From assembly GCA_012295275.1 (NCBI GenBank), contig CM022671.1, positions 35,898,001-35,962,000 on the forward strand: a DNA stretch of 64,000 nt, in the 5' to 3' direction. Each line of letters opens with the position of its first letter. The first letter of the stretch is position 1. Under the pieces are notes generated by a model. It did no database searches. It was not told the DNA's origin and saw only the letters and a list, made by a program, of their open reading frames with translations. Shown one piece after another: positions 2,811 to 63,752 of this stretch. The DNA comes from Chrysomallon squamiferum (lineage: Eukaryota; Animalia; Mollusca). Both the position numbers and the translations under genes were made by a program.

Positions 2811-4074
2811 TTCTGTTTTTGTAAACTTGTCTAGGCATGACAGAACTGATGTGTAAAAAGACTAAAATAATTTTGTTTACTGTTAAGATTCCTAATTTCC
2901 AACATTACCACTGTCATTAGGTATAACAAAAAAATAGTTACTTCAGAATCATGAGAACTTGTATCAATTTAAACTTAAATGTGTGTCCAAGTGTTACCTG
3001 TCAGTGTTGTCTGTCATTGGTTTATCTGTTTATTTATTTATTTATTTATTTATCTGTTTATTTATTTATTTATTTATGTGTTCAGCAATGCCTCAGTGAG
3101 ACAGAGAATACACTTTTGTTTGCAAATAACAACATCAAGTACAAACATACAAACATACAAACATACATACATACATACATACATACATACATACATACAT
3201 ACATACATGTAGACTGTTTAATAATAATACATGTAACTATAGTGCATAAGCATTATTTTAAAATATATACACAGATCTGAGATATGTTCCCTTAACACAT
3301 GAAATCAAAATAAAAAAAAATAAAAAAGTATGTAGGAAGATGTGGGCTGGACAAGAAACATCACAAAAAAAAAATTAAAATTAAAATTAAAATATATATA
3401 AAATAACAGTAATGATTGTTTTTTTTGTAAATACTGATAGATTTAAATCAGGAACAGACAATTCTGTTACAAATAACCAATGTAAGCAAACTGTATGGTA
3501 TATAGTCTATGAACTGAAGTTTAAATATTTTGTATAAAAATAAAATGATGTGCTGATTCTAATCCAGTCTCTGATCTTTTTACTGTTTTTAAGTTTTTCA
3601 TGTAGTGATTCTGACGAATAACAAATAAATGTTAATTTATTTTAATCAAAAACTTAAAATATAACAATATGTTAAAAACTGTTATTTAAAAAAAATACAT
3701 TAGCAAGACAGTTTTACATTCAACATCATTTTCATGTCCAATATTAACTCAGTTTATTAATTTGATTAATTTTAAAAATGTAGGGTCTAATGTTTGTAAA
3801 GAGCTGTTTTAGCTTCCTTGTTTTACAAGAGATATAATTTCTGTTTGTTAAAAATGATCAATATAAACAATAAATATGTTTTCCTGTTTTTTTTTTCTTT
3901 TTTAAAAATATCTGTTTTTATTCTTCATTTTCACTAAATTTTAAATATTTAGTTTGGCAAATTAAAAAAAAAATTTTTTATTAATAATTTAATAGTTACT
4001 TATTTATTTTATAATAACAAAATAAGCAAATAAAATTCCTCAAATGTGAATAATACAAAAGAAATGACAATATT

Positions 4075-4109
<35 letters not shown>

Positions 4110-4889
4110 TGAACATTTTAAAATGTTTTAGACAGGTAATCTCAGATCTAGAACAATGGTTGACACATATAGAAAGTTTGTGACTGTTCCACAGAAAATG
4201 TGTTTATGGTAGCACCATGCAGTGACACTGAACAGTTTAGTGTATATATTACAAATTTATTTTTAAAATAAGTTGTTGTCACACCCTATCCCATCAGCAT
4301 ATTTAAATATTTGAACCATAACTGTAACCAGTCCCAAGAATTTCAGGGAAAAAAAAAAAAAAAAAAAAAAAAAAATGGGATGATTTTTGTAGTATGGACC
4401 TAATCCTCTATAATAAGAATAAGAATAATAATAATAATAATAATAATAATTTAAATTTAGTTTCGTTCAAATTTTAAATCGCTTTTTAAATGGACTACCA
4501 CCAATCAGTCAAGAATCTGCTATCAGCATGTTAAGAAACATGGCTGTGACAGGGGAAAGAAAAGTAAACAAATTTATCCACAACAATTCTCCTGCCTTAT
4601 GGTACTCTTTCATGATGCTGGTCACGTTCTTCTGAACCATCTTCAAGAATGAAGAGGTTTAACACAGTTTTCATCACATAAAATAATAATTAAAAAAAGT
4701 TCTGTTTATCATAACACTGATACATTGTGAGGGAAAACATCAATAAAATAATGCATATATATATATATTTACAAACATATATATAAAACAAAAACAAATT
4801 ACCATAAAAGGCAAAAAAATATATATATATAGCTTTGATATTATACTTGTGTGTTTGGATATATGTAAACACACTCACACACAAACTCA

Positions 4890-45122: not shown

Positions 45123-45384
45123 CTAATCATCAAGACAGCACAAAAGAGCGAGTCCTCGTTTTATCCAGTGTCGGACAGGTTTGTTTGTTGTGAGCAGCAT
45201 CGCCATGACAAAGTTGGTAGAGTGACCGGTGGTGGACAGCACTCCACGCCGCTCGCTGGTCTTGTAAACTGGACACTTGTAGCGTTTCTCTGATGTGTCA
45301 ATCTTGTCAGCCATGTCTGGGCGGAGCCAGATGATGGGCATCGCTTCGTACAGGATCTTTGGCATCTGTTCGGATATAACACGC
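45123..45384 (-). CDS. DNAH12: Dynein last coding exon (...[11 protein letters not shown]...[10 protein letters not shown]...LLCCLDD*)
   Basis: Conserved dynein C-terminus; TAG at 45123-45125. Confidence 0.96.
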
Positions 45385-46155
45385 CTACAACAACATCATA
45401 GCTCAGTTATTAAAACAAATTTTTATTTATTTTTATTACTGTAATAAAAACATACAACTATGATTATATGGATAAGTATGTCTATTAATGACAGAAGAAA
45501 ACAAACAACAGATTTTACTCTTTATTTTAAAGCATTATAAATATAAGTTTCAAAATTATATCTTAAAAATCTAGGCAAAGTCATAATTGTAAAACCCCCA
45601 AAACCCCCAAAACAAACAGACAAATTAAAAAAGAAATCAATAATAATAATAAAATTAAATTAAAAATAAAAAAAATATATAAAAAATCCCCAGAAAATTA
45701 GTTTTTATTCTTGCATTTATTTTTTACTGTTAAATTGAAATTATGAATTTTTCTTTCTATTTTAGTATGATATGTTAAAAAAAAAGAAGTAAAATAACAA
45801 CTTACTCTTTTCTATCCCAGCGACCACCATCAAGGAAAAGTCCAAACACGTAAACACCATCATCAGGTGGATCATCATGTGTGTCCACTGACAACACCTA
45901 GAAACACACACAAGTAAATCATTACCACATACTAGATATACACCATTTCTTACAGAATACTAGAAATATACCATTTAGTATAAAATACTAGATATACACC
46001 ATTTCTTACAGAATATTAGAAATATACCATTTATTACAGAATACTAGAAATATACCATTTATTACAGAATATTAGAAATATACCATTTATTATGGAATAT
46101 TAGAGGCATACCATTTATTATGGAATAATGCATTAGAAATATGTCATTTATTATA

Positions 46156-46190
<35 letters not shown>

Positions 46191-46517
46191 TGGTAAATGA
46201 TGTCTAACTGCAAATAAGTGATGATTATAGTAAACAATAATTTAATAAATCAATAAAAACTGACACCAGTGAAAATGTTTTTGATATTAACTATTGATTT
46301 TGCAGGTAAAATGTGAAGAGTTTTACCTCAAAATCGTTGGCGAGTTTGTCTATGGGGATGGTGTATTTCCTGGCATAATTCTGCATGGCGCCAGTGAGGA
46401 AGGCCTGAGTGAAGAAAAATCCTGAAATCCAGAATACTGCTGGTTTTCCTTTGTCATACCATTTCTGTAACAAAGCATGGAGTAGTGAGAATACAAACAC
46501 ATCATCTCAAGTTACAT

Positions 46518-46580
<63 letters not shown>

Positions 46581-49500
46581 ACAGAGACATGCACACACAC
46601 ATACAAACATTTTTTTCAATGAAAAGGACAAAGACCTGCAAGAAGTTGAGTCTTTCGAGGAAGTCATTGATGTAGCTGCCAAGGGGCTTGAGGGAGGGGT
46701 AGGATCTCTTCACCCACATGGCAGGTTGTTTACCAATGAGCAGACTGCCGGCCAGAGCCTCCAGTTCAGCTGACATAACCACCAGACCTTTGATAGCTTT
46801 CTGCAGATTCTGCAAACTGCTTCTTATAATACTGAGCAGTCTAAAAATATCAGAGACAGAGTAGTTAAGTGAGATAGTCTGTCACATCAACCACACAAAT
46901 AATCATGTTACTCACATCAGACAATAAAACACAAAATACCAAGGAAACAAATACACACAAGACAATTAGGAACAAGTTACCACAGAAACCAAAATATGCA
47001 TCAGTAATACAAAATTAAAAAGAATATATTTGTTTGTCTATGTAATTGTCAAAATGGAAATAACATTTCAATAGTATTGTGAACATTCTTATTTTTAAAG
47101 AAAAATAATAGCAGTAATAACAAATTATTTCATGAATTTTATAAACTTTGGTAAGAAGAAGTTTTACCTGTTGAATCGTTCCATCTCCTGGACAAGTACA
47201 GTGTTCATACTTTCAGAGTAGGTGACCGGATATTTCTTTGTGGCTGTCTCTATATCATAGTCTTTAGGTAACTGAAAATAATTGTCAAAATTTCTCAAAT
47301 TACCATCCAGAAAAACAGAGATCAACATCCACTTCCTTCATACATTAATTTTAACTATACACATATTTATTTTACAATACAGTAAAGAGCTGTTATTTTT
47401 TGGTAGTATTTTGGTTTCATTGTTTTCAAAACTGAACAATTTTAATTTCTTTAAAACAAATTGTAAATAATGACATAAAATAAAAAATAAAAAATAATAA
47501 AATATGTTGTCAAGATGAAAACATCAAGATATTTTTCATGTTTTGTATTCTTTATTTCAAAAGCCAAGTCATTTAATTTGGTTTAATTAAATAAGTAACG
47601 AAGTAGAAATACTGGACATAAACAGCTGAATACCTTGGCAAGAATGTCTGAGGCGATGTCTAACAAAGTTTCGTCTGACTTGCCAGACGCCCCCCCTTCT
47701 CCTCGCCCCTGAGTGAGCAGCACTGAGTCGAAGAGCAGTTTAGTTTCCTGCAACTCTCGAGTGATGTCAACATTCTCGTGAAGTCCAAACACTTCTGGGT
47801 TCTGTGTCTGAGGAAGATTCTGTCCAAAAAAATATTTAAATTCATATTCACACTGTCAGATTTGTCTTGTTGCTTGATTCACTGTAGCACATTAGTTAAT
47901 ATCAAGCACTGTTTAGTAACAAAAATTTAGAAAAACAGCAACACTTTAAAAATATTTTGTGTTTGATTGAAAAGTCAAACAATTAATGACAACACAAATA
48001 TACATTTATTCATTTTCTTTCATCACTGTTAGCACATCAACTTTCTATCTTTACTGTAATTTCTCTTTCTGACATGCAGCCTTCAGTTACAAATTAATAC
48101 TGTTTAATAACAACATCAGCCACTGGACATATAAATAAAACATGTAGGCTGTTAGTACCTGTACAGATATCCTTTTATTTATAATAAAAGAAATAATACA
48201 TGATCTCAAATATTAACTCTGTTAAACTGAGTAACAAAATTAAGACTACATTTAATAAAGTGACCGCATACCTTGATAAACTCGACGTATTTTTCATAGG
48301 AACTCTTGGGAGGTGCAAAGTAGATTCCGCTGGGAGAGAACTTGTACTTGGCTTCTGTGATCACCTGCGGGTTGTAGAAGTCATCCAGCAATGTCAGCAG
48401 ACAGCGTCTGTCCCAGTCGTCAGTGACACGGCCGCCGTAGTTACACTCGCCTGTCATGTATGAGATGGCATCAAAGGGAACATCGTCGTACTCGTTGATG
48501 AACATCTGTAGCTGACGTACGGAGATACGCAGGTCAGACTCGTTGAAGCCGTATGGAATGTTCCAGCCAATCGGCCCAACTTTCCTACGTTCCTGAACCA
48601 GTGCGTGGAAGAAACACAAGCCAAACAGCAGCTTTTCAAATTGCTGAAAGTAAAATCATTATAAGTTGATAATAAAATTATATAAAATAAACATCATCAC
48701 AAAATCTTATGAACATGACTTTAAAATATTGTTTTGTTGTTAAGTAATACCACTGAAATAAAATAATAATAAATTAAAAAATTATACTATGGGTATTTTA
48801 AAAAATTTGGTAAGGTGTCTCTTCAACAAAACAGTTTGATTTCTATTTTCTGCTCAGTGTGTATTTAACAATGCATGTTTGATAATAACTATTTTAAATA
48901 ATTAAAAACATGGAGATGACTTACGAGTTCTTTTCCGGGACACCCGCTGAAGAACTTCTCATCACTGATTGGGTCATTGAGGTAGGACTGTAACAGGTTC
49001 TGTCTGAGACCAGTCGGTGGCTCATTGGTCATCTTCACTCCGTTCTGTAACACCGACACAGGGAACTGCAAAACAAACACTCTAATAATCTACTGAACTG
49101 ACAGGCTGTCTGATACAGGGAACTGCAAAACAAACACTCTAATAATCTACTGAACTGACAGGCTGTCTGACACAGGGAACTGCAAAACAAACACTCTAAT
49201 AATCTACTGAACTGACAGGCTGTCTGTAACTGTCAAATGTGGTTAAACAAATTCTTGATTTTGTTAAAGAAAAAGAAAAATTCAGACAAGTTCAGTGGGG
49301 AACAAGGGATATTCTCATCTTTACTTTTACTGCATGATTTGCCCCCAATTCGAAATGGAATCCAGATTAAGATACATAAAACCATCCTAATACAACTAGA
49401 CCCAGGAGGATAAATTAAGATATACGATGACAATAAAGTTTTAGAAAATTAAGATGAGTAGTGTGATGAGATTTTTATATTTAATTAGAGAGATTTACTT

Positions 49501-52326
49501 TAGGAGACGGGTAGCTGGTGAGCCAGAGTCTGAAGTCTGCGTGAGTGTTTTCTGTGGTGAAATCCTCACAGATCTTTTCTAGTGGAGTCATCCACGACAC
49601 AGCTAAGTGACAGTTCTGCAGCAGAACCCAGGTTCCATCCTGCCGAGCTGCGTCTATCATTTTAGCTGCTATAGGACCCTGAAAATAAACACAGCAAGCA
49701 TGGGTCAGTCGCAGAAATATGATATTTTCAATTTATTTAACACCAAATGAGACACAAACAAAAACAGTTAAATAAATATTTACTCTTTAATCCTTTTGAT
49801 GAATACTTTTGTCTTTAATCTCCTTATCACTCCTCTCACCGTATCCAAATATTGACCTACTGATACATGCATTATGTAACTGTAAACACAAGTAAGACAA
49901 ATACCTGGCCCTGTCCAAGTGAGATGGAGTTGAATTTCTTTGCTCCGTATCCTTTGTCATCAGCAAACTTGAGCAGACTCATGGTGGGGTCAGCCCCAGG
50001 GGACAGGACAAAGATGAGGGGAGTGGTCTGGTTTGAATCAGCATAACTCTTTGCCAGGTCGAATGGTGGAGGCTCAACAAACTTCTTACCTAACTTCTCC
50101 ATCACAAAATCAGTGATAGCTGGAATTATCTGAAACACAAACAAACATCTGTAATTATAGAATTATCTTACTTGACATGTGCTTATTTCTTTTTTATTTA
50201 AAAGTGTATTACTTAATAAATGATTGTTAAATAACTCTGTATATTATAATATTGAAAGGTAAAATTAAATAAATAAATAACTCATACCCTGTATAAATGG
50301 GCCAGTTCTTACATTCAGAGAGCTTGAAGAGCATTAATATTATTTTAAATGGTAATTAGAAGTGAATAAATGACTATATATATTTAATTATATTAATAAT
50401 TATTAAAAATTAAAACAAAATTTCTGAAAAGAATGAGAAAACTGATTTTGATTAATCACTTTTTATGACAGATGAAGGTAAAACAATAATCTTTTACATG
50501 CAGTGGGAGTCCTGGCTGGAACTGGAGAAATGAAATGTCATGTGATTACCTTGTCAGGTCTGATACAGCGAAGCACCATCATCTTCTCAAAGTCAATGAG
50601 ATCTTTGTCCCAGGGGCTAGGCAGGGGCATCTTGTTCGGTTCCTTTGACGCATAATATTCTCTCCATTTGTCCAGATTCTTGGTGAAATGATCTCTAAAA
50701 ACATTTGTCAATATTTGTTACAGCAGAGACACACATCCACTCAGACACAGGACACTTACACACAGATATATACTTACACTTAGATATATATATACTAACA
50801 AACAGATAGATACTTAAATATATATATATACTTACAAACACATATACTTACACAAAGATGCGTACCTACACATAAATATATACACAGAAATGATCATGTT
50901 CATTATATGTCTATTTCGATTTGGATTTCTGTTTATATATGTTCATTTTACAGACATTAATTATATTGTTATGGATACAAGTAAAATAAAGATTTTGAAA
51001 AGGGAGTTACTTTTAATTAATTCTATAAACTAACAATGTGAATAATTTTTTTTTTTTTTAAATGCACGAAACAATACCAGTTAAAAATAAGAAATGGTAT
51101 TAAAATTTTAATTTTACACTAGGAATATTTTCATTAGCTCATGGACTTGTGTTCACAAAATGAAACTTTTTAAAAGGGTCATGATGAAATTACAGAAGAT
51201 GTTTGGTGCCATTACGACAGTATCCATGGTCTGAGAGATCTATTATTTATTGCTGCAGTGATCAGTGTCTCTGATGTTTTAGGAGTGTGTAAATAATACA
51301 TACAACTCTGACATTTCAACTACTCTGCTGGATGGATCCAGTTTTGTCTTCTTGTAGAAATTAATAAAATCTTTGTGTTGTATCACAAATTCTTAAACTA
51401 ATTACTTGTTTTTTAAACTGACACAAACACAGACAGCTAAAATATTGTTTTGAAAATGAAAGAGTAAATCAGAATTTTCTTAGACTATTAAAACTGAATG
51501 TATCGCCTGACCCTGAAACCATAATTCACTCACTCTCACTAACTTTCTCTCTCTCTCACATACACACACAATTTATATAACAAAGACATATACATATAAA
51601 ACACACAAACCACATATTTGATAACAAATTTTACCTGAACTTTTTGAAGTTGGTCAGTTCTGTAAGACGACAGATTTCATCCCAGGATTTATCTGTGAGC
51701 CACTGAGGGGCGGGGTTGGCCAGCTTGTTCTCCAGCCCCACCCCTCCAGTGAGCAAGAACATGAAATCATCGTGTTTTAGATCCTTCCTTGCTCTGAGAA
51801 ATTAAAACAAATTTGACAGTATTATTACCTAATCTGTGATTTTAATATTTTATATTTAATACACATAAAAGATGAAATATGCATTAGTGAAATGTAATAA
51901 TAATTAAAGTAAGCATCTTTGCAATAAGTTATGTTAAATGTACAAGAAACAAAATTATTCAAATGATATTCATATATTAATAGATAATTTTACTTTAATA
52001 TAAACACAAAATTTAACAGAACATTGAAAATTATAATCTTATATTTTACACGCACACACACACACACACACACATATCACAAACCCACACTTTTACCCAT
52101 TCACAGAAACACAATAGCACACATAAACACATTTAAACATGAAGTTAATACATAATGTGAATCACAACAAAACAAAACACAAAACAGTTAGTTACAACAC
52201 ACAGTATTAGACAAACACAACAACTCAGATACTACACTAGTTTCTGAAAACTAGTCCTATTTCTAAAGAAGAAAATAAACACTATCTTTGTTATCAAGGA
52301 AATAGATGAAATGTATGGTTATTGAA

Positions 52327-52381
<55 letters not shown>

Positions 52382-54451
52382 TATATATAAAAGACTGAAA
52401 TGAATAAAGAAAAAAGAAAACTAGAAAAAATGAGAAAATGTGAGAAAAAAAAAGAGGAAAGATCCAAACAGTGAATTTAGGCCATAAAAACACTGTAAAA
52501 ACCTGTAAAAACACCATACTCAACACTTTTCTAAATGTAAGAAACCTGATCACACCCTCTGCCCTCCCTGAGTACTTTCTTTTTAAATTTTTATAAATGA
52601 GTCAGTACTCTTTCCCCTTCCCGCCTGACTTATTTTTATTTGCTTTTAATAAATGTTTGTAAACAGAATAATAGTCAACTATTCACAGCTTGTTTGTTTC
52701 CTAAAAATAAATAAAAAAATACACATCCCATCCTTTACTGTACACTTGCATTTCAAGATTTAATAAAAAAAATAATACAAACAATAAAAATGTTAACAAT
52801 TTTTTATTAGTTTGTTAAATGACTGAAAACACCCAACTTTTTATTGATTACTTTTTTCTCTAGGTGTTGATATTTTTACTCCAGCTTTACTGAACTTTAA
52901 ATTTTTTAAATATTTTATATAAAACAGTTTCAGGTTCACTGTGCATTTGCTTGTTAAATATTTACAAAGTTGACTGTGCCCTTTACTTATTTGCTTATTA
53001 TGAGAATTGAATGTTCATCTCTGAGTCTATTTGAATATGTATTATAAAATGTTTCTCACATCTTAACACCCAATCTAGAAGTTTGTATATTTTGTTGTTT
53101 GACCATATATTTGTTTATCAGGTATTTTGAAAACCGGTCATACCCTCCTTTATATCAGATTATTAACAACTAGTATGTAAATCACAAATCTGGTTACTTT
53201 CTGTTAGTGACGCTCACTCAAGTTTCAAATTTTAAAAATGTGTTAAATTGTGCATCTTCTAAACAGCATGCTGTAGTGCAGGAAATAAACATTGTTGATG
53301 ATGTCATCACTTGTTGCCAAGACAACAGAAGTCAAAAACAAACTGTGGTGTCCATCACTTGTTTGGGTAAAAAATATTTAAAAAAACAAAAAAACAAAAC
53401 AAACAATAACAGCAGTGCACACCAATCTGTATAGTGATCATACTAGTACACACCATTTTGTGTTAAGTTCAACATTAAAAATGTAAAACACACTTAGTGT
53501 GAGTAGAAAATCAAAAATCACGGCAGCGATGCACACGTTTTTCTTGTGTGAGAAAAAAAAAGAAAAAACAACAGCAGTGCACACCAGTTCTGTGAGTTGA
53601 AAAAGAAAAATGACAACAGCATGGCAGGCAGGTCTGCCTGCAGGACGTGGCCTGTACTTACGACAGAATGTTGGAACAGAGAATGAAAGAGAAAAGAAGT
53701 TTGTCTTTCTCAAAGAGAGAACGACACACGCTGCAATAAAGGTTGTAGGTGAAATGGTCCGAGAGATAGCGTAATCGCTTTTCCAAGATCTTGGATTTGT
53801 TGCTGAAAAAACAGGAGACAAAGTCATTAGGAACTACAGAAGAAGATGACTAGATTAAACCCTGTCCACTAGGACACAGAGCAGGACCCAGTTCTTGTTG
53901 TCTGCAGAACGATTTGCTTGGTAAGGTAGTAAAATACTATTTTAAAAATTCAAATCTCAGATGCTTTTCTTATAAACCTAACTTACCAAACAAAATCACT
54001 GCTAACAACAAGAACTGTTTCTGAAAAAAGATGAAAGCTCTTCTATAAATTATTTCATGACAAACACAAGACAAAAATCTAAGTTTCCATGTCTGTTATT
54101 ACAAATTAAAGTTTAAAATTTATTCCTCTGTGTTTGCCAATGAAGTAACTATAGAGCAGCTTTCATCAGACACATATAAATACATGAATAATCTGCTGGT
54201 ATGACTAAATACTCACAACTGCATGTTGGCACACAGAAGGAAAGCAAACACGAGCTTGTGTTTGGCAAACAGAGAGCGAGATACATTGTCATACAACTGA
54301 TAGGAGAAATGATCCTTGAGGTAGCGCAGACGTTTCTCCAAAATCTTTGACTTATTACTGAAAAATTACCTCACAGCATGTTACACAGAAACTGTTATAT
54401 CTCTAGCTATTCGTTTATTTCCTACTAATTATATTTGTACTACTAGTAGTC

Positions 54452-54527
<76 letters not shown>

Positions 54528-54923
54528 AACTGTCATCATCATCATTTCATTACTAATTGCCCATCAGTAAGAATATTGAGAACTATGTTGTTATTATAAT
54601 GTGCTATTTTTAATTGAATTTATTTGTGATATATACATTATTATGTTGTTATTATTATTATTATTATTAATCCTGCTACTACTATTATTATTATTATTAC
54701 TACTATTGTTACTGTTTATTATTACTTATCATTATCATAATCTGCTGAAAGACAAACATACTCAGTATTATAAATATAAACAATTTACATGTTGACTCAA
54801 GGCATTTCTCCAAAATCTTTGACTTATTACTGAAAAATTACCTCACAGCATGTTACACAGAAACTGTTATATCTCTAGCTATTCGTTTATTTCCTACTAA
54901 TTATATTTGTACTACTAGTAGTC

Positions 54924-55011
<88 letters not shown>

Positions 55012-58000
55012 AACTGTCATCATCATCATTTCATTACTAATTGCCCATCAGTAAGAATATTGAGAACTATGTTGTTATTATAATGTGCTATTTTTAATTG
55101 AATTTATTTGTGATATATACATTATTATGTTGTTATTATTATTATTATTATTAATCCTGCTACTATTATTATTATTATTACTACTATTGTTATTGTTTAT
55201 TATTACTTATCATTATCATAATCTGCTGAAAGACAAACATACTCAGTATTATAAATATAAACAATTTACATGTTGACTCAAGGCATTCCAGCCTGGTCAT
55301 ATTAAATATTCAAATGATCAAACTGTTTTTGTTTGTTATACGAATCAGCTTACACAAACAACACAACATCTATCTACAATCTTGTCATTTTATTAACTTT
55401 CGGTCATGTTATCTTTAGTCTATTTCTTTTCTAAAGAGTGAGGAAAAACACCTGAGGAAGTGTATTGTTTAAACATGATTGTATCAGTGAGTTACACAAC
55501 ACACAGAGATGAATGTATCAACACAGCCTGCAGCCAATTACCAGATTGCATCAAAAAATAACACCCAGCTTTCTCTACCCACAGGCCCTTGTTTACAGTT
55601 CTTAGTCTACACTTCGTAAAGTAAATAAAATGACAAAAAACATTACCTGTAATATATATTTTCTAAGGTAAATGAAATGATTACAAATGTTATGTATAAT
55701 ATATATTTTGTAAAGTAAATAAAATTCTGATGAACATTTTACCATTAATATAAATTTTGTTAGGTGAATATAACAAAATTTTGATACAAATTTCACTGAT
55801 AATAAATATTTTCTAATGTGAATAAAACAGAATTAAGATAAGGTTCATTTATATCAAATATTCTGTAAGATGAATTAGAAAATGTTAATATTAAACATTC
55901 ATCTATAACAATACATCTTGTAACGTGGATGTAAGAAAATAAAGGTAAAAATTTAAGTACATATCATTCTATGATCTTGATTCATGGTTCTTAATACACT
56001 TTTTTAGATTTATTTATTTATTTATTTATTTATTATTTTCTGTTATATGACAAAAAGTAAAGACATAATCTATGACATTGTAAAATACAAATACATATTT
56101 ATGTTGACTTTTAGCCTTTTATTTAAATTTGCTGTTGTACAGATTGTAGTGATATGTAAATTTTGATTTCTGCAGGCAACATGCAACAGAAAAACTATTA
56201 TTAATTTTTTTTTTTTTAAATAACTGTTTATCATTTGAATTATGATTTTTCACTCCCTTGTTCTTGTAAATCTCAAAATCAATATAATCTGTTCCATACA
56301 TAATATACATATTCAAACTAAAATGATTGACTTAGGGCTGATAGGAGAATAGCTGAAAAATGTCTTTCTAACTTATGAAGTTGGTAGATAAAATATTTTG
56401 ATAATTTTTGGTTTAGATACAATTGATGGAAAAATAAATTCGAATTTGTGACTGTCTAAAAACATTTTGAAACTTAATAATTAATTAAAAAATAATAAAT
56501 AAATGACATAGACATAATATTGCATAGATATATAATGAAACAAATTGGAAATTAATTTAAAAAAAACACTGAAATAATAATAATAATAATAAAATAATAA
56601 ATTTAATGAAATAAATTAAAATTTAATAAATAAATACATTTAAATGTACATGAGAGAAAATAAAATAACAATTATAATAAAATTAAAAATAAATTAATCA
56701 TAAATATAATGTTTTCTGTAAATAATAAAACCAGCCATGATAGGTATAGTAAAACATTAAAAAGAATTAAGAAAGTAAAAAAATAAAATAAAATAAATAA
56801 TAAAATAATCATAAATATAATTTTCTCTGAATGTAAGAAGACAGTCCATGCTAAGTATAGTAAAACACTGAAAAGAACTGAGAAGGTAAAAGAAATTACC
56901 TGTCATGTATTGACATGATGAAGAGGTTGACAAACCAGATGAGAGAGTACTGGTACATGGGGTCAATGTTTGGCAGGTCAGCGATGGAGAAGAACAAGAT
57001 GGAGGAGTGTTTGGCTATTGGTCTGTAGCCCATTCGAGACGCTTCAATTTTCTTCTCTGTCTCCTCTGCAACCTGTCACAACAAACATTTGAGTTTTTAA
57101 ACATAACTTATGATTTACCATCAACATAAACAATTCCTTAATCTTCATATTTTGCAAAACATTTTGTGTGTGATGCCTAATCATAATATTTTAACAAGCA
57201 TTTAAGTCCAGTCCTATTAACTTAACTTCAGAATTTTACTATAGACTCAAATTAATTAATTTTACATAAATTTCATTACTTAACCCCAGTACTACCTAAG
57301 TTGCTTTGAATTAATATAGAGAAAAAAAAAAAATAATAAAAAAATTAATTAATTAATAAAAAAAACAATAAATAAAAACCCATCAAAGAATGTAAAAAGA
57401 AGTTAAGATAAAACATCTACCATCTGTTTCTTAGAGATTTCATCGGAGAGTATTTTTGAGGAGTCAAGGATCTGGATGGCGCTCTCGTCCTCCAGGATGT
57501 TTCCCTCTGATGCAGACAGTGTGAAGAGAATCTTGTCTTCTATCTCCTTCAGCTGTTTACGGTTGGCTGCACCCGTGACAATCAACACCTGACGTTCCTC
57601 CTCTAGTTCAGGTCTGAGAAAATTAAATATACAATTACTTACTCAAATTAAATGTACTATAACTTACTCAAATTAAATGTACATTTACTTAACCAAATAC
57701 CTGTTGAACAAACATCAGTTTGCATGTTTCTAAGTTATTCTTTTACCTCTTTGACACACCAATATCATTTTGTATGTTTCTAAGTTACTTTTAATTTTTT
57801 TTTGAAACACCAATATTATTTTGTACATTTTAAAGTTATTTTAAAATTTTTGACACAACAATATCATTTTGTACACTTCAAAGTAATTCTTTGAATTTTC
57901 TGATACACCAATATCATTTTGTATGCTTTTAGCTGATTTTTTTAAAATTTCTTAACACAAACTTTTCTAACAATAAAGTATAAAAATTGGTATTGGAGGC

Positions 58001-59448
58001 TGTCATTTTTCTTTCTTTCACTGCACATGTTAATCATATATAACACATCTAATAATTTTACAAGCAACAACTTTGTTAATTTGTTTTACTCAATAATAAA
58101 TTATTTGAAGTTAAATTCAGTGTAAAAATAAAATTTTGAAACCTTTCTTTTGCAACGACAATTCCCAGCAGCTGATCTTCCAGGCCCTCTGGCGTGATCA
58201 TGAAATTGAGGAGGGACACTTTGGTGGAGATTTCTGGCAGGTAGTGAGGGTTTCGGAGTTTGGTTGTGATGTAGAATCTGAAGTCCTGGCTGTACTCAAT
58301 GACGTTGTCACCCAAACGTATCATCTCCACTCCACCTGTAGTCAAATCAACATTTGTTTTAATATTTTACATAGCTGTCACAGAAAACATTCACGTTATG
58401 TTGTTATTTTATAAATTTAATTATCTTTAATATAGTTATTTTTATAATAATAATTTTTAAAATGAAAAACAGGTTTAATTTTTTATTAATCACAAATTTG
58501 AACATAATAAAAATCCATCAAAAGAAAAAATACTTTTAAAATATTAACATAAATGAATCCGTTTTTTTAATATTTAATGACAAGAAGAAAAAAATCATAT
58601 CTTGTTGATACAAGTAAATAATATTTATTGTATATCTGAAATTCTTTCCATGTAAACAAAGTATTTTTATTTATGGATGAAATGTTTAGGAACAAGTTTA
58701 GATTTAAATAACTAATTTAGTGTTTTCACAAAACAACAACAAAACAATGTCAAGAACTGCTAACATTACTACTTGGTCTTGTAATGGAATAATATTGATA
58801 ACAAATAAAAATTTAATCCTTGTTGACACATGTAGCATAAAATAATTAATAAACCAATAAAAAATACAAAATAAATAAATACTGATAAATAAAAACATGT
58901 GGTTCAGAAGCTTTTTAAAAGCAGCAGTAAACAAAAATAAACAAAAATATGAAGCTTAATGGATAAAAGCTGTTATTCATGTTTTTATTCTTAAGAAATT
59001 AATATTCAAAAAATAATAATAATATATATATATGTATGTATTTGAGCAAAGTATAAAAAGACAATATTTTACAAGAAAAATAAATGTAATATTAAATTGA
59101 CACAAACAAATTAAAATAATAATAATAATAATAATAATAATATTAATAACAATAAAAACAACAACAACAGCAAAGACTATTGATAAGAATAAAAATGCTA
59201 ATGTTTGATTGTATCTCATATTGTATTTTTTTTTTTTTTTTTTTTTTTCAGTTAACAGATAAGGATTAGATCTACTATTTGTAAAAGAAAAAAAATCAAT
59301 AAAAATATTTTATGATTTAAAGATTTCATTTCCACTGATGTAAAACAGAAAGGAGTTGGATGAATGGATGAAAAAATAGATAGCAAAAAAAAAGAAGTAA
59401 TAAGGCAAGAAATACAAACATTGAAACACACAGGATAATATTCAGATA

Positions 59449-59484
<36 letters not shown>

Positions 59485-59506
59485 AAATAAATAAATAAAT
59501 AAAAAA

Positions 59507-59556
<50 letters not shown>

Positions 59557-59582
59557 AAAAAAAAAAAAAAAAAAAAAAAAAA

Positions 59583-59625
<43 letters not shown>

Positions 59626-60680
59626 AATAAAATAACACACTGACAATGCTTCTGCTACATATACTTCAACTTACTGTCCCCTGTACCATGCAATGGTATT
59701 AATCAACAATGGATGCAAAATTAGAAAAATAAACAAACATTACATGCATTTCAAGTCAGTATATATTTGTTTGTTCATGAGCAAACTAAACAATCTAAAG
59801 GTAAAGGATGCAGCATTCAGTAAAATTAATTATTATTTTCAATGCTTTTCTAAATTAACGTTCTAAATTATGATGCTAATCTACAAAGACTGAACTAGAA
59901 ATGTAAAAATAAAATATTTCTAAAATCTACAGTTCATTCTTGTTTGAAACTATGAAAGTAACAAAGTAAAAACGAAAAACTTCTGTTAAAAATTCTACTT
60001 GTTTGTTCTGAAACTATAAAAGTAATAAAGTAAAGATAAGAAACTTCTGTTAAAAATTCTACTGTTAGTGCATACTTATTGATTATGATAACAAACACAT
60101 CTAAGAGATATGTGTATATATATTGTGTGATAACAAACACATCTAACTAAGACATGTGTAAATGTTGTGTTTACACTTGCATGGAAGGTATTATCGACAT
60201 TTTTACGTTTTTAATTATTCACAAAATATGAGCTTTGAGCAAAATAAAAAAAATATAAAAGAGCAATTTTTTTGTGAGAATACACATATGTCATGTAGAG
60301 GTAATTAATAACATAGAGACAGGTGTGGAAGATAAACATTCAAACTTGTGTTTAAATATTTTCATACAATCAGTATATTAACACTTGAAATGACAGTTTT
60401 TGAAATAAGCCAAAGATAAAGTAAACAAGTGAAAACTGAATAAAATAAGTGTTACATGTGTTGAGGTGATGTTTCTAAACGTTGTTTTGTGTCAGTAAAA
60501 ACTGATGTTTTAAATATAATTCTCATCCATGATTCAGTGCATCATCTTTGTCACACTGTGGTGGAATGTGCTACAAACACTTTGACAACTGTTACAATAT
60601 TTCACTATGTTAGAAATCCTAACAGCAACAAGCAGTCACAACATACACAGTGAATTATCTAATTCATTACAGCTGTTAAG

Positions 60681-60749
<69 letters not shown>

Positions 60750-63700
60750 TATTGTAAATTATGCTTTTTTTTTTTATTATTATCATTAACTCAGTTTTAT
60801 TACTGCTATTGCTTTTTATTCGTATTCTTTAGTAAATACATCTTACATTTCTTACTATGTTTTTAAAAAACATTTATTACTTCTTTTCATTTATATATTT
60901 TTTTAAATGAATAATACTACATAATTAACAATAACAAAACTATCACTGTAAACATCTACGTTAAATAATAAAAACGTGACGCTGTGATTGCCAAACAGTC
61001 ACGAGTACTGTCTTGTCACCAACATGAACTGTACACAACATTGTCAGCACCAGACAGCCAGTGAGTCATCTACACATCCTATCAGTTACTTCCAGTGTTC
61101 ACACAGACACACTTGTCTTTACAATGGACTCAGAATTACACCAAATACTTCACACTTTGATAATTACTTGTAGAACCAAAAACATCTGATTAAAGAACTA
61201 AATTTTATCAGAGTCCATTGTATTTAACTTACACACTGTTTCCGATTTTGCTATTAAATATTTGAAAATAATATTAGTGTTAACAGTTGTAGAAATCACC
61301 ATTATAAAAATAAATCATTACTAAAAAAAATAAAAATTGTATGTAATATTTAAATGAAGAAATAAAATTGAAAAGCCCCAGAAAATCACACAAAACATAA
61401 CAGTAACACACATACAAATGTATATACACCCACACTAACAGATACATGAGGAAAGGGATACAAAATAATTAAAACAAAGATGACTCAGTCAGTGTAGAAT
61501 TGTTGAAAATACATTTGTTCCTCCAGTAAACTTTTCTATGTAATTTCAGAGAAAGTAAAAGATGAAAACTACTAAATTTCTATTGGAAAACAACAAGAAA
61601 AAAACAACAAAGAACACAACATCAGTTAACATATATGGCCTAACCATTAATAAATGTGTAAAAGTAAAATGTTCTTATTAACAACCTGAAACAAACAATA
61701 GGTTAAAATTTCATGTATTTTAAAACAAGCTGTCTGGTCTGTGTAAATATTTAGTTGTGTGTATTCTTGGTCTCATTTTCAACAACATTACTGGCTAAAA
61801 TGTTTAGTAATTATTAAAATAATATCAAATGTGCACAAGGCACCTAAGTGATCTTTTCATATAAACAGTTTGTTAAAGTAAAAAATATGCAGTAAGTAAT
61901 GCAATAATTTTTAAAATACCTGTGCAACTAATTACAAAGATTCATGCATCCAAGCAAATACTAATATTAAAGAATGATTTTTAAAAGTCTACTTTACTAC
62001 TAATTATTAATAAATAAAATGTTTTACCAATTTGTTAATTTAAAGCTAAGTGAAAAAAGTCTAAATCTTCTATCATTCATTAAATCTAATATTAAATATT
62101 TTGCAGGCAAATATATCTTCTAAAACTCACCTTCTGTTCATGAGAAAAGATTTTGAAAAACAAAACATTTAACTTAGGACTGAACATGTATTAATGGATT
62201 ATTGTTTATTATTATTTATTTTAAATACATTTTTAAATATTCTTTTTTGAACATTGTATATATATGTAATGAAATTCAGACAACATGATAAAATAATGAA
62301 TGCTATTTTATTTGATTAATATTTGTGTCACAGATGAAAAACCAAAGTTAGAATATGCAGATAATGTAAACATTTTATAAATGCAACAGTTAATTATAAA
62401 TACATACCAACACTCACATATAAACACAAATATACATATATGTAAACACTGTAAACACACACACACACAAAAATATACCCCACCCCAAAACACACAAAAA
62501 TCCAAACAAAACCAGCACTGATTGTTATCTTCAGTAGTTTTAGTTATAGTTAAACACCAAATTTAAAATATTTTCTTAAAATTTAATAAACGTTAGTTTT
62601 ACAAACAATTTTTCATTTGTGTCTAATAAAACAATAAGTGATGTTTATAAAAGAGTATCTCATGTACTTACTCTGTTTGAAAGTCTGTTTATGTGACTAA
62701 TAAAACAATATCTGATGTTTATAAAAGAGTATCTTGTGTACTTACTCTGTTTGAAAGTCTGTTTGAGCAGCAGTGGCTCCAGGGAAGGGTCAAGCTCCTC
62801 GCCGACGTTCTCCAGCAGGAGAGGGTTGCCGAAGTTGATGCAGTTCTCGAGAGTTCTCATGTAGTCTGAGTCAGTCAGCTTGATCACTGAGAGTTTGTTG
62901 TCTTTCTCTGAGTTCTTCACCCACTTGTTAGCCTGGGCCTGTGGGTCAATCATCAGAGGCCTGTAAAATTAAATAAATAAATAAATACTTAAATATTAAA
63001 ATAAGTAAATAAATACTTAAATATTAAAATAAGTAAATAAATACTTAAACTATAAAATAAATAAATATTTAAAGAACAAAATAAAAAAAAAAAATTACTT
63101 AAACAATAAAACAAATAAACAAATATTTAAACAATAAAATAAATAAATACATAAACAATGAAATAAATAAATACTTAAACAATAATATAAATAAATAAAT
63201 ACTTAAACAATAAAATAAACAAAAAATACTTAAACAATTAAAATAAATAAAATATTTTTCATTATTAAAATAAAAAAAATTGAAATAAAAATAATCATGT
63301 AAAAAAAAAAGGAGAAATAATAATAACAACAATTTTAAAATAAACTAAATTTTCAACAAAAAACAAAGACAATAATATAAAATACAAAACAATGACTACA
63401 AAACAAAAGAAATAAAAATTACAAATAAATAAATAGGTAAATGAATAAATAAATAAAATGAACTAAAACAAAAATGAAGCATGCCCACCCTTTAGCAACA
63501 ACAAACAATTCTGAAATAAAATCTACACCATGTTTAAACTTGAGAAACCAACAGAATGTCAAAACATAAAATAAAAGATAAAATAAATGAATAAATTTGA
63601 AATTACCATCTGCGAGCATTAGCCACAATGACACCATTGTCGATGGAGAAAGCATCTTTTGGTAGTCCAGCGATATTCCACGCCTGAATTTTTATAGGCT

Positions 63701-63752
63701 CACCTAGAGTTTTACTTAGAGAAAAGTCTTTGGTGCATGGAATATCCTTTGA
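45123..63752 (-). CDS. DNAH12: Axonemal inner-arm dynein heavy chain, DNAH12-like; 3' part (AAA5, buttress, AAA6, C-terminal domain), 5'-partial, 1089 aa in window
   Basis: 18 exons per transcript (19 counting both alternative exons), all GT-AG and in frame. Contains [34 protein letters not shown] and [10 protein letters not shown] and ends LLCCLDD*. The segments [13 protein letters not shown] and [10 protein letters not shown] fit DNAH12 better than DNAH3/7 by my recall; this was not searched. Confidence 0.9.
45806..45897 (-). CDS. DNAH12: Dynein exon (VLSVD...[18 protein letters not shown])
   Basis: GT-AG, in frame. Confidence 0.95.
45925..46160. repeat. ~28-bp minisatellite (TAGAAATATACCATTTATTACAGAATAC) next to a dynein acceptor
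   Basis: About 8 copies. Confidence 0.88.
46327..46464 (-). CDS. DNAH12: Dynein exon (KWYDKG...[10 protein letters not shown]...DFE)
   Basis: GT-AG, in frame. Confidence 0.95.
46636..46840 (-). CDS. DNAH12: Dynein exon (LLSIIR...[11 protein letters not shown]...NFLQ)
   Basis: GT-AG, in frame. Confidence 0.95.
47168..47271 (-). CDS. DNAH12: Dynein exon (LPKDYD...[14 protein letters not shown])
   Basis: GT-AG, in frame. Confidence 0.95.
47634..47819 (-). CDS. DNAH12: Dynein exon ([16 protein letters not shown]...DILAK)
   Basis: GT-AG, in frame. Confidence 0.95.
48272..48643 (-). CDS. DNAH12: Dynein exon (QFEKLLFG...[13 protein letters not shown]...EFIK)
   Basis: Core of ORF 48206..48619; GT-AG. 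Confidence 0.96.
48925..49065 (-). CDS. DNAH12: Dynein exon ([17 protein letters not shown]...GKEL)
   Basis: GT-AG, in frame. Confidence 0.95.
49055..49226. repeat. 57-bp x3 tandem repeat containing the dynein 49065 acceptor
   Basis: Units start at 49055, 49112 and 49169. Confidence 0.95.
49499..49678 (-). CDS. DNAH12: Dynein exon (GPIAAK...WVLLQNCHL...[12 protein letters not shown])
   Basis: GT-AG, in frame. Confidence 0.96.
49905..50129 (-). CDS. DNAH12: Dynein exon (IIPAIT...[12 protein letters not shown]...ISLGQGQ), AAA6
   Basis: Core of ORF 49872..50144; GT-AG. Confidence 0.96.
50550..50694 (-). CDS. DNAH12: Dynein exon (DHFTKN...LRCIRPDK)
   Basis: GT-AG, in frame. Confidence 0.95.
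51635..51793 (-). CDS. DNAH12: Dynein exon (ARKDLK...FLLTGG...WLTDKSW...KKF)
   Basis: GT-AG, in frame. Confidence 0.95.
53313..53326. promoter_or_regulatory. RFX X-box-like GTTGCCAAGACAAC
   Basis: Motif match, adjacent to a TGATGTCA CRE-like element. Confidence 0.4.
53662..53802 (-). CDS. DNAH12: Dynein alternative exon B ([46 protein letters not shown])
   Basis: 141 nt, phase 2-2, TTTTTCAG acceptor, GTAAGT donor; canonical [14 protein letters not shown] motif. Confidence 0.93.
53889..54017 (-). other. Intronic RNA hairpin (arms ~53978-54017 and 53889-53929)
   Basis: CAGUUCUUGUUGUUAGCAGUGAUUUUGUUUGGUAAGUUAG pairs with CUACCUUACCAAGCAAAUCGUUCUGCAGACAACAAGAACUG. Three positions are G-U pairs on the transcribed strand but C-A mismatches on the other. 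Confidence 0.8.
53987..54020 (-). other. Candidate 34-nt poison cassette exon between dynein exons A and B
   Basis: CTTTCATCTTTTTTCAG acceptor and TG|GTAAGT donor; in-frame TAG and TGA; coincides with one arm of the inverted repeat 53889-54017. Confidence 0.55.
54217..54357 (-). CDS. DNAH12: Dynein alternative exon A ([46 protein letters not shown])
   Basis: 141 nt, phase 2-2, TTTTTCAG acceptor, GTGAGT donor, open frame; paralog of exon B. Confidence 0.85.
54333..55287. repeat. ~475-bp tandem duplication (54333-54804 and 54805-55287) including the exon A acceptor
   Basis: Near-identical copies differing mostly in TAA/TTA tract length; produces the twin ORFs at 54601 and 55085. Confidence 0.93.
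56900..57072 (-). CDS. DNAH12: Dynein exon (VAEETE...DPMYQYSL...SIHD)
   Basis: GT-AG, ends in phase 2. Confidence 0.95.
57421..57613 (-). CDS. DNAH12: Dynein exon (PELEEER...SEGNILEDE...KKQM), buttress
   Basis: GT-AG, in frame. Confidence 0.95.
57700..57960. repeat. ~53-bp degenerate tandem repeat (GACACACCAATATCATTTTGTA..)
   Basis: About 4-5 copies. Confidence 0.8.
58143..58335 (-). CDS. DNAH12: Dynein exon (GVEMIRLGD...[14 protein letters not shown]...VVAKER)
   Basis: GT-AG, phase 1 to 2. Confidence 0.95.
59945..60150. repeat. Two short local duplications (~63 bp and ~42 bp)
   Basis: AAACTTCTGTTAAAAATTCTACT twice; GATAACAAACACATCTAA twice. Confidence 0.8.
62622..62764. repeat. 74-bp tandem duplication containing the dynein 62746 donor
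   Basis: ACTTACTCTGTTTGAAAGTCTGTTT at 62666 and 62740. Confidence 0.92.
62746..62960 (-). CDS. DNAH12: Dynein exon (PLMIDPQ...[11 protein letters not shown]...KQTFKQ)
   Basis: AAA5 motifs; GTAAGT donor. Confidence 0.95.
63607..63752 (-). CDS. DNAH12: Dynein exon (SKDIPC...AWNIAGLP...NARRW)
   Basis: TTGCAG acceptor, GTAATT donor. Confidence 0.95.

Follow-up and report, generated by a model that had tools for sequence, protein, structure and literature searches.

Tandem paralogous exons, candidates for mutually exclusive use, in the motor domain of the axonemal dynein gene DNAH12 of Chrysomallon squamiferum and other molluscs

The DNAH12 gene of Chrysomallon squamiferum contained two adjacent paralogous exons (A and B) that constitute a real and ancient tandem mutually exclusive exon candidate, with both copies intact and under selection. 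The two exons are likely used one or the other, which would yield two DNAH12 motor forms with retuned coupling in different cilia. They were located in a window of 64,000 nucleotides (the whole stretch that was analysed; contig CM022671.1, positions 35,898,001 to 35,962,000), in which the following features were mapped:

45125..63752, minus strand: 3' part of the DNAH12 gene (AAA5, AAA6 and C-terminal domain), with 18 exon positions, one of them doubled; the gene runs on past the right end of the window
56900..57072, minus strand: upstream constitutive exon, encoding the end of the buttress helix and the PMYQYSL helix; its 3' end is joined to A in RNA contigs
54217..54357, minus strand: exon A, the derived form, 141 nt, phase 2-2, with D23, A31, H33 and V36
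53803..54216, minus strand: A-B intron, 414 nt, with a candidate branch point (CTAAT) 28 nt upstream of the B acceptor
53662..53802, minus strand: exon B, of the ancestral type as in human DNAH12 3179-3224, 141 nt, phase 2-2
51635..51793, minus strand: downstream constitutive exon, encoding the first extra helices past H9 of the AAA5 small domain (AAA5S); its 5' end is joined to A in RNA contigs

The original prediction, which was made from the letters of the window, had described two open exons of 141 nt and phase 2-2 at these coordinates, and all of this was reproduced on the minus strand. The recount also returned its 32 of 46 shared residues (98 of 141 identical nucleotides) and its nine synonymous differences within the first 13 codons. 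Over the full exon, 13 codons were identical, 19 differed synonymously and 14 non-synonymously, and the Nei-Gojobori method gave a dN of 0.197 and a dS of 2.3, which is near saturation (dN/dS about 0.09). These values, together with the conservation of both classes in 15 molluscs, agree with the proposed old duplication and purifying selection. The acceptors of A and B were TTTTTCAG and the donors GTGAGT (A) and GTAAGT (B); the acceptor of A is the weaker one, as its pyrimidine tract contained 52% pyrimidines vs 78% in B. Adjacency, equal length, same phase, homology, and intact AG/GT sites, which are the criteria for tandem-duplicate mutually exclusive exons, were all found in the pair. The Gigantopelta protein matched 18 exon positions, of which the A/B position was the only one doubled, and a tblastn search found no third full copy of the exon in the window.

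Sequence comparison identified the gene as the orthologue of DNAH12 (DHC7C; single-headed inner-arm dynein a) and not of DNAH7, DNAH3 or DNAH1, with the assignment based on best matches and percent identity, without a whole-gene tree. The best solved-structure match of both exons was human/bovine DNAH12 3179-3224, with an E-value of 6e-22 for B (next, DNAH7, 6e-14) and of 4e-16 for A (next, 1e-10). The dynein of the window shared 931 of 983 aligned residues (94.7%) with DNAH12 of Gigantopelta aegis over 16 exons; for these flanking exons, Haliotis came next with 86% identity, and the identity to vertebrate DNAH12 was 73-74%. The protein of exon B was identical to that of Gigantopelta XP_041350372, and exon A shared 44 of 46 residues with XP_041350373. 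By orthology with mammalian DNAH12, which is inner dynein arm a (PMC11779644, PMC11949491), the mollusc protein is inferred to occupy inner arm a (PMC11779644).

RNA contigs of C. squamiferum, assembled from four runs (X1-X4) of one study, were compared with positions 53400-54430 of the window. X2, X3, and X4 each contained a contig of 3.0-3.7 kb that covered exon A exactly, with A included and B skipped, and the loose ends of these contigs matched the terminal part of the 56900 exon and the initial part of the 51793 exon; no A contig came from X1. The predicted junctions 56900>54357 and 54217>51793 were thus both found, and the co-inclusion junction 54217>53802, whose dominance would have spoken against exclusive use, occurred in none of the three spliced contigs. 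The other two predicted junctions, 56900>53802 and 53662>51793, were found in none of the four contig sets; RNA contigs drop rare variants, so that this lack of spliced B is no evidence of absence. B was represented in two unspliced contigs only, with a depth of about 3 (X1, X4). The mutually exclusive use that had been proposed is consistent with the A-in, B-out contigs of three of the four runs and with equal-length RefSeq isoform pairs in eight species; in C. squamiferum itself, none of the four runs yielded spliced B. The proposal had also taken B as the canonical exon and A as the non-canonical one; the exon seen spliced in this species was A. A synonymous variant in a His codon at window position 56905, among the last codons of the upstream exon, was present in all three RNA contigs.

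The intron upstream of A contained a further duplication that reaches into the exon:

54335..55287, minus strand: near-perfect tandem duplicate, with copies of 481 and 472 bp and 468 of 469 aligned bases identical

This duplicate, which is either a recent duplication or an assembly artefact, copies the acceptor of A (a decoy AG at 54830) and the first 25 nt of A. Use of the decoy would give eight residues of A and then a stop after 39 codons; the RNA contigs used the true A acceptor and not the decoy.

A comparison with the DNAH12 genes of other molluscs had been recommended, and it revealed that the pair recurs in bivalves and gastropods. Among 120 listed full-length DNAH12-like proteins examined for the exon pair, 112 had a single copy, six had both in series (Sinanodonta, Plakobranchus, Pomacea, Nucella, Biomphalaria, and Lingula), and two were unreadable. 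Members were also taken from protein clusters, of which three large ones were covered in part (15 of 22, 15 of 16, and 15 of 16 members), and among the members listed, 35 RefSeq models came from 12 molluscs, of which 19 carried A, 16 carried a B-type exon and none carried both; nine of the 12 species were represented by both kinds and three by A only. RefSeq isoforms are models, which probably rest on RNA reads. In eight species (Biomphalaria glabrata, Mizuhopecten, Pecten, Mya, Dreissena, Gigantopelta, Haliotis cracherodii, and Physella), isoforms of equal length (about 4000 residues) differed at 13-18 positions, all of them within the exon. Inclusion of B with A left out was represented by RefSeq models in nine of 12 mollusc species and by the full-length protein P0312, which was derived from Logan contigs and contained B only; a second Logan-contig protein (P0350) contained A only. 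Both exons occurred together in 11 of 237 long proteins, namely nine submitter models and two partial Lingula RefSeq models, and 24 of the 237 fell outside the A/B tally of the motif script (21 without the anchor, three with neither motif). Several public gene models that concatenate A and B are probably wrong. The order A then B was the same in the window, in the contig L001 described below and in the concatenated models of Sinanodonta, Plakobranchus, Elysia, Pomacea, Nucella, Biomphalaria, and Lingula. All 24 A-only long proteins were molluscan save one Logan protein, the exon of which was Batillaria-like. Arthropod, deuterostome and Owenia models contained one B-type exon each, and all vertebrate models examined contained a single B-type exon and no A type; protein models cannot prove that A is missing from the genome (Lottia, Owenia, deuterostomes, and arthropods).

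A-type exons with the same borders were also present as genomic ORFs in other assemblies. The JGI animal contig L001 contained an A-type exon (937-1077) followed by a B-type exon (2268-2408), both of 141 nt and phase 2-2. L002 (280-420) and L003 (584-724) contained an A-type exon only, with 1.6 kb following, in which B was neither shown nor excluded. These three metagenome assembly contigs, in which the A-type exons have E23 instead of D23, may come from annelids, because the end of the L001 B exon (LCTKLL) resembles that of the annelid Owenia (LCCKLL) and is unlike the mollusc B exons examined. L004 and L005 were rejected as carriers of the pair, being chance matches, and a high score in Timema was due to a duplicated upstream anchor and not to the A/B exon. 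Dreissena polymorpha XP_052285541 contained a second B-type exon (YALYCNVCRSLFERDKIL), which gives a three-member cluster. DNAH12 isoforms of starfish, sea cucumber, and acorn worm have an optional insert of 7-8 residues directly after the A/B-equivalent exon (isoform pairs P0229/P0323, P0313/P0215, P0326/P0324, and P0322/P0317), apparently a splice variation that arose independently at this site of AAA5S.

Several routes by which exclusivity can arise were rejected for the A/B pair. Frame shift and NMD do not provide it, as A and B together comprise 282 nt and remain in frame, nor does steric clash, given an intron of 414 nt with the candidate branch point 28 nt from B, and the U12 route does not apply. 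Since neither the frame/decay route nor the steric route can give exclusivity, the choice of A or B would likely be made by cell-type splicing factors that act on the weaker acceptor of A, perhaps assisted by an intron pairing that loops out A. A weak candidate for such a pairing was found:

55443..55456, minus strand: candidate 14-bp pairing arm in the intron upstream of A, which would loop out A
53956..53969, minus strand: partner arm in the A-B intron

The pairing energy was -17.8 kcal/mol, and one of 40 shuffles was as good. In L001, too, the best helix between the upstream intron and the A-B intron was matched by one of 40 shuffles, and the helices of the window and of L001 are not homologous; a looping out of A by RNA pairing is suggestive at best. 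For the A-B intron and the intron downstream of B, pairing did not exceed that of shuffles (38 of 40 and 33 of 40 reached the same value), and no conserved intronic block was found between the window and L001 or L002 besides simple repeats.

The two classes differed consistently among 15 molluscs, in which no residue was shared between the 15 A and the 15 B exons at five positions: 20 (Q/L in A vs N/S in B), 23 (D vs C/S), 31 (A vs E), 33 (H vs D), and 36 (V vs L). In human DNAH12, these correspond to residues 3198, 3201, 3209, 3211, and 3214. The mean identity was 80% within A, 91% within B and 70% between A and B of one species, and the mean identity to human across molluscs was 87% for B and 71% for A. 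In 98 other dynein hits, position 31 was E in 90, position 33 was D in 52 and H in 44, and position 23 was D in one, and the combination A-x-H at positions 31-33 was found in none. The original prediction had noted the loss of two Cys and the change of EKD to AKH in A; A31 and H33 are indeed diagnostic, whereas the Cys at position 26 was kept in two of the 15 mollusc A exons.

The residues, order, and borders of the exons give good support to a single origin that predates the split of bivalves and gastropods, and an origin of the pair in lophotrochozoans is likely. The exon would thus have been duplicated in tandem before the bivalve-gastropod split, and probably earlier, in lophotrochozoans, after which B would have retained the ancestral sequence and A would have gained new residues that later became fixed. 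The pair would be over 500 million years old. In a tree of 56 exon sequences (46 columns), all 24 A types were placed on one side of a branch with a support of 99/96 and the 32 others on the opposite side; upon removal of the diagnostic columns, the A exons no longer formed one group (three changes). It is possible, though in our judgment less likely than not, that the mollusc pair alone derives from one event and that the pairs of Lingula and L001 arose by separate duplications with convergent changes. Species-wise pairing was not rejected by the AU test for either Lingula (p-AU 0.45) or L001 (p-AU 0.13), the A exon of Lingula had only two of the five diagnostic states (A31 and V36), the models of Owenia contained B only, and the third copy gained in Dreissena indicates that re-duplication happens. 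On the other hand, order, borders, and A31 were common to all pairs, and the best tree united all A types. Over exon positions 1-17, A and B of the same species agreed at six variable N-terminal positions in 84 of 102 comparisons (17 species pairs), vs a mean of 75.6 when re-paired; this agreement was reached by 6 of 10000 shuffles, with relatedness uncorrected, hinting at co-evolution with neighbouring helices or at occasional gene conversion.

The placement in AAA5S after the buttress and the PMYQYSL motif that had been proposed from the sequence was borne out by Pfam flanks, by two modelled helices and by structural alignment. The exon corresponded to residues 3221-3267 of protein P0394, between PF12781 (AAA5L, 2937-3157) and PF03028 (AAA6L, 3402-3516), and no Pfam family covered the exon. 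The A form of Gigantopelta was modelled with AlphaFold2 (471 residues, 39 sequences, mean pLDDT 77.7); the model had a pLDDT of 85-94 over the exon block and placed in order the buttress helices, the PMYQYSL helix, and two exon helices joined by RSLF. These modelled helices (297-317 and 322-339) correspond to exon positions 6-26 and 31-48. The model aligned to Dictyostelium 3660-4126 and yeast 3392-3773 (Z 12-22, rmsd 9-14), and this range alignment, with the domain boundaries in Table 1 of PMC4047620, puts the modelled exon late in AAA5S. With H8 and H9 labelled by helix order (PMC4047620), the exon is predicted to encode the final pair of core helices in AAA5S. In the model, the turn between H8 and H9 has the diagnostic residues on either side, behind the buttress, and R27, S28, and K34 were invariant in 39 of 39 aligned dyneins.

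AAA5S bears the buttress and moves with AAA6L (PMC6600642, PMC4047620), and one proposal is that the AAA5S-AAA5L interface coordinates the ATPase with microtubule binding and with the mechanics of the linker (PMC6600642). Relative to B, exon A would lose negative charge where H9 begins (E31A, D33H) and gain it where H8 ends (C23D). Because AAA5S carries the buttress and moves with AAA6L, a swap of A and B would most likely alter the coupling between ATP turnover and the stalk, in rate or force, and the two inner-arm motors, differing in one AAA5S helix hairpin, would be tuned for different cilia. Two motor isoforms had been suggested from the sequence, and the A-in, B-out contigs and the one-or-other models in relatives make them likely. 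As to deployment, B might serve single flagella such as those of sperm, and A might serve multiciliated epithelia. This guess draws on two facts: mouse sperm depend on DNAH12 (B type in mammals), which tracheal cilia can do without (PMC11949491), and spiralians own specific ciliary-band components (PMC7441323). We advance only tentatively, and think it unlikely in full, that the pair is a lophotrochozoan-wide switch of more than 500 million years between a sperm-type B and an epithelial or ciliary-band A, with the five substitutions marking an unrecognised AAA5S tuning site. If this were true, splicing of one DNAH12 gene would take the place of the separate dynein genes that mammals have for sperm and for cilia, and the AAA5S site would determine how the ring of the motor moves its buttress and stalk.

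The two isoforms might also differ through the surface of A, which would alter contact with a partner (the CFAP44 tether/tetherhead or an assembly chaperone) and not internal coupling; we regard this as possible, at well below even chances. In the prestroke state, the DNAH12 motor is in contact with the CFAP44 tether/tetherhead (PMC11779644); most of the diagnostic changes are polar or charged, and they are grouped at a helix turn. However, the relevant passage of PMC11779644 names no contact surface, L36V is hydrophobic, and the invariance of R27, S28, and K34 is as for an internal interface. That the copies are functionally equivalent, both kept by ordinary structural constraint as a frozen accident, is very unlikely: A tolerates more change than B, as seen in their within-class identities, but a redundant copy should drift or vanish, and four A-specific residues were invariant in all 15 molluscs, depart from a state conserved from insects to humans and belong to a copy that, among the members listed, was retained along with B in nine of 12 RefSeq species. 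Use that is not strictly exclusive appears very unlikely, whether A+B is a real product or B is dying here and A is effectively constitutive. Such use would be compatible with the shared frame of A+B, with the 11 of 237 long models that contain both (including the two Lingula RefSeq partials) and with the splicing of A alone in this species. It accords poorly with the skipping of B in all three spliced contigs and with the 0 of 35 mollusc RefSeq models, among the members listed, that contain both. Furthermore, B was intact, with the stronger pyrimidine tract and a protein identical to Gigantopelta B, and a second H8-H9 hairpin would have no place in a five-helix bundle, to judge from PMC4047620. 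One-or-other use with retuned coupling is the reading that we consider likely.

The A/B pair probably belongs to the known sort of tandem mutually exclusive exons that tune a motor and is notable for occurring in an axonemal dynein, for being phylum-wide and for the common use of the derived form. The orthologous pair was already contained, as automatic isoforms, in RefSeq/GenBank models of mollusc "dynein axonemal heavy chain 12-like isoform X1/X2" (for example, Gigantopelta XP_041350372/373, Biomphalaria XP_055865511/512, Mizuhopecten XP_021341821/822, Pecten XP_033745268/270, Mya XP_052780138/139, Haliotis XP_071083416/417, and Physella XP_059163826/834). These were annotated without remark, and several submitter models wrongly or doubtfully concatenate A and B. 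The cytoplasmic dynein DHC1 of Schistosoma mansoni has a mutually exclusive exon (Pillmann et al., 2011, PMC3228551), which resembles A/B in comprising equal-length, split-codon paralogous exons of a dynein heavy chain, but that gene encodes cytoplasmic dynein-1 and not an axonemal inner-arm dynein. Some DHC genes with alternative splice forms of the motor domain were mentioned and left unanalysed by Kollmar (2016, PMC5100056); DNAH12 (DHC7C) was not named as a case in the accessible parts of that article, nor mentioned in two of its three supplementary files. Muscle myosin heavy chain genes of arthropods and lophotrochozoans, including molluscs, contain clusters of mutually exclusive exons (Kollmar and Hatje, 2014, PMC3912159), which, like A/B, are ancient tandem duplicates in the motor domain of one gene. 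The myosin exons tune their motor with measured kinetic effects, whereas tuning by A/B is predicted, and myosin is an actin motor with many clusters, in contrast to DNAH12, a microtubule motor of cilia with one. Mammalian DNAH12 is orthologous to the gene of the window, and its human exon matches the mollusc B exons at the 87% average given above, but the vertebrate models examined have the one B-type exon and no A. No description of an alternative exon in any axonemal dynein of molluscs, DNAH12 included, was found in the literature consulted, in which subscription journals are thinly covered, and the pair is apparently undescribed there.

The different beats that one axonemal toolkit produces in sperm, gill and larval cilia are usually explained by paralogous genes; here, the motor ring of a single inner-arm dynein contains a cassette with two states that is phylum-wide. 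The pair may be viewed as a natural, long-selected mutagenesis of the AAA5S interface with five defined, transplantable substitutions. Should A prove to mark gills or ciliary bands, it would add to the few ciliary components that are specific to spiralians (PMC7441323).

Two further observations were made alongside these results. A divergent dynein-like family (P0006, P0007, P0008, P0009, P0047, and P0057) kept a 17-residue stretch and lost most of the neighbouring conservation. Downstream of the dynein, ORF exons of another gene were located on the minus strand at about 9808-31568 of the window, which we take, from its motifs, to be calcium/calmodulin-dependent protein kinase I-like.
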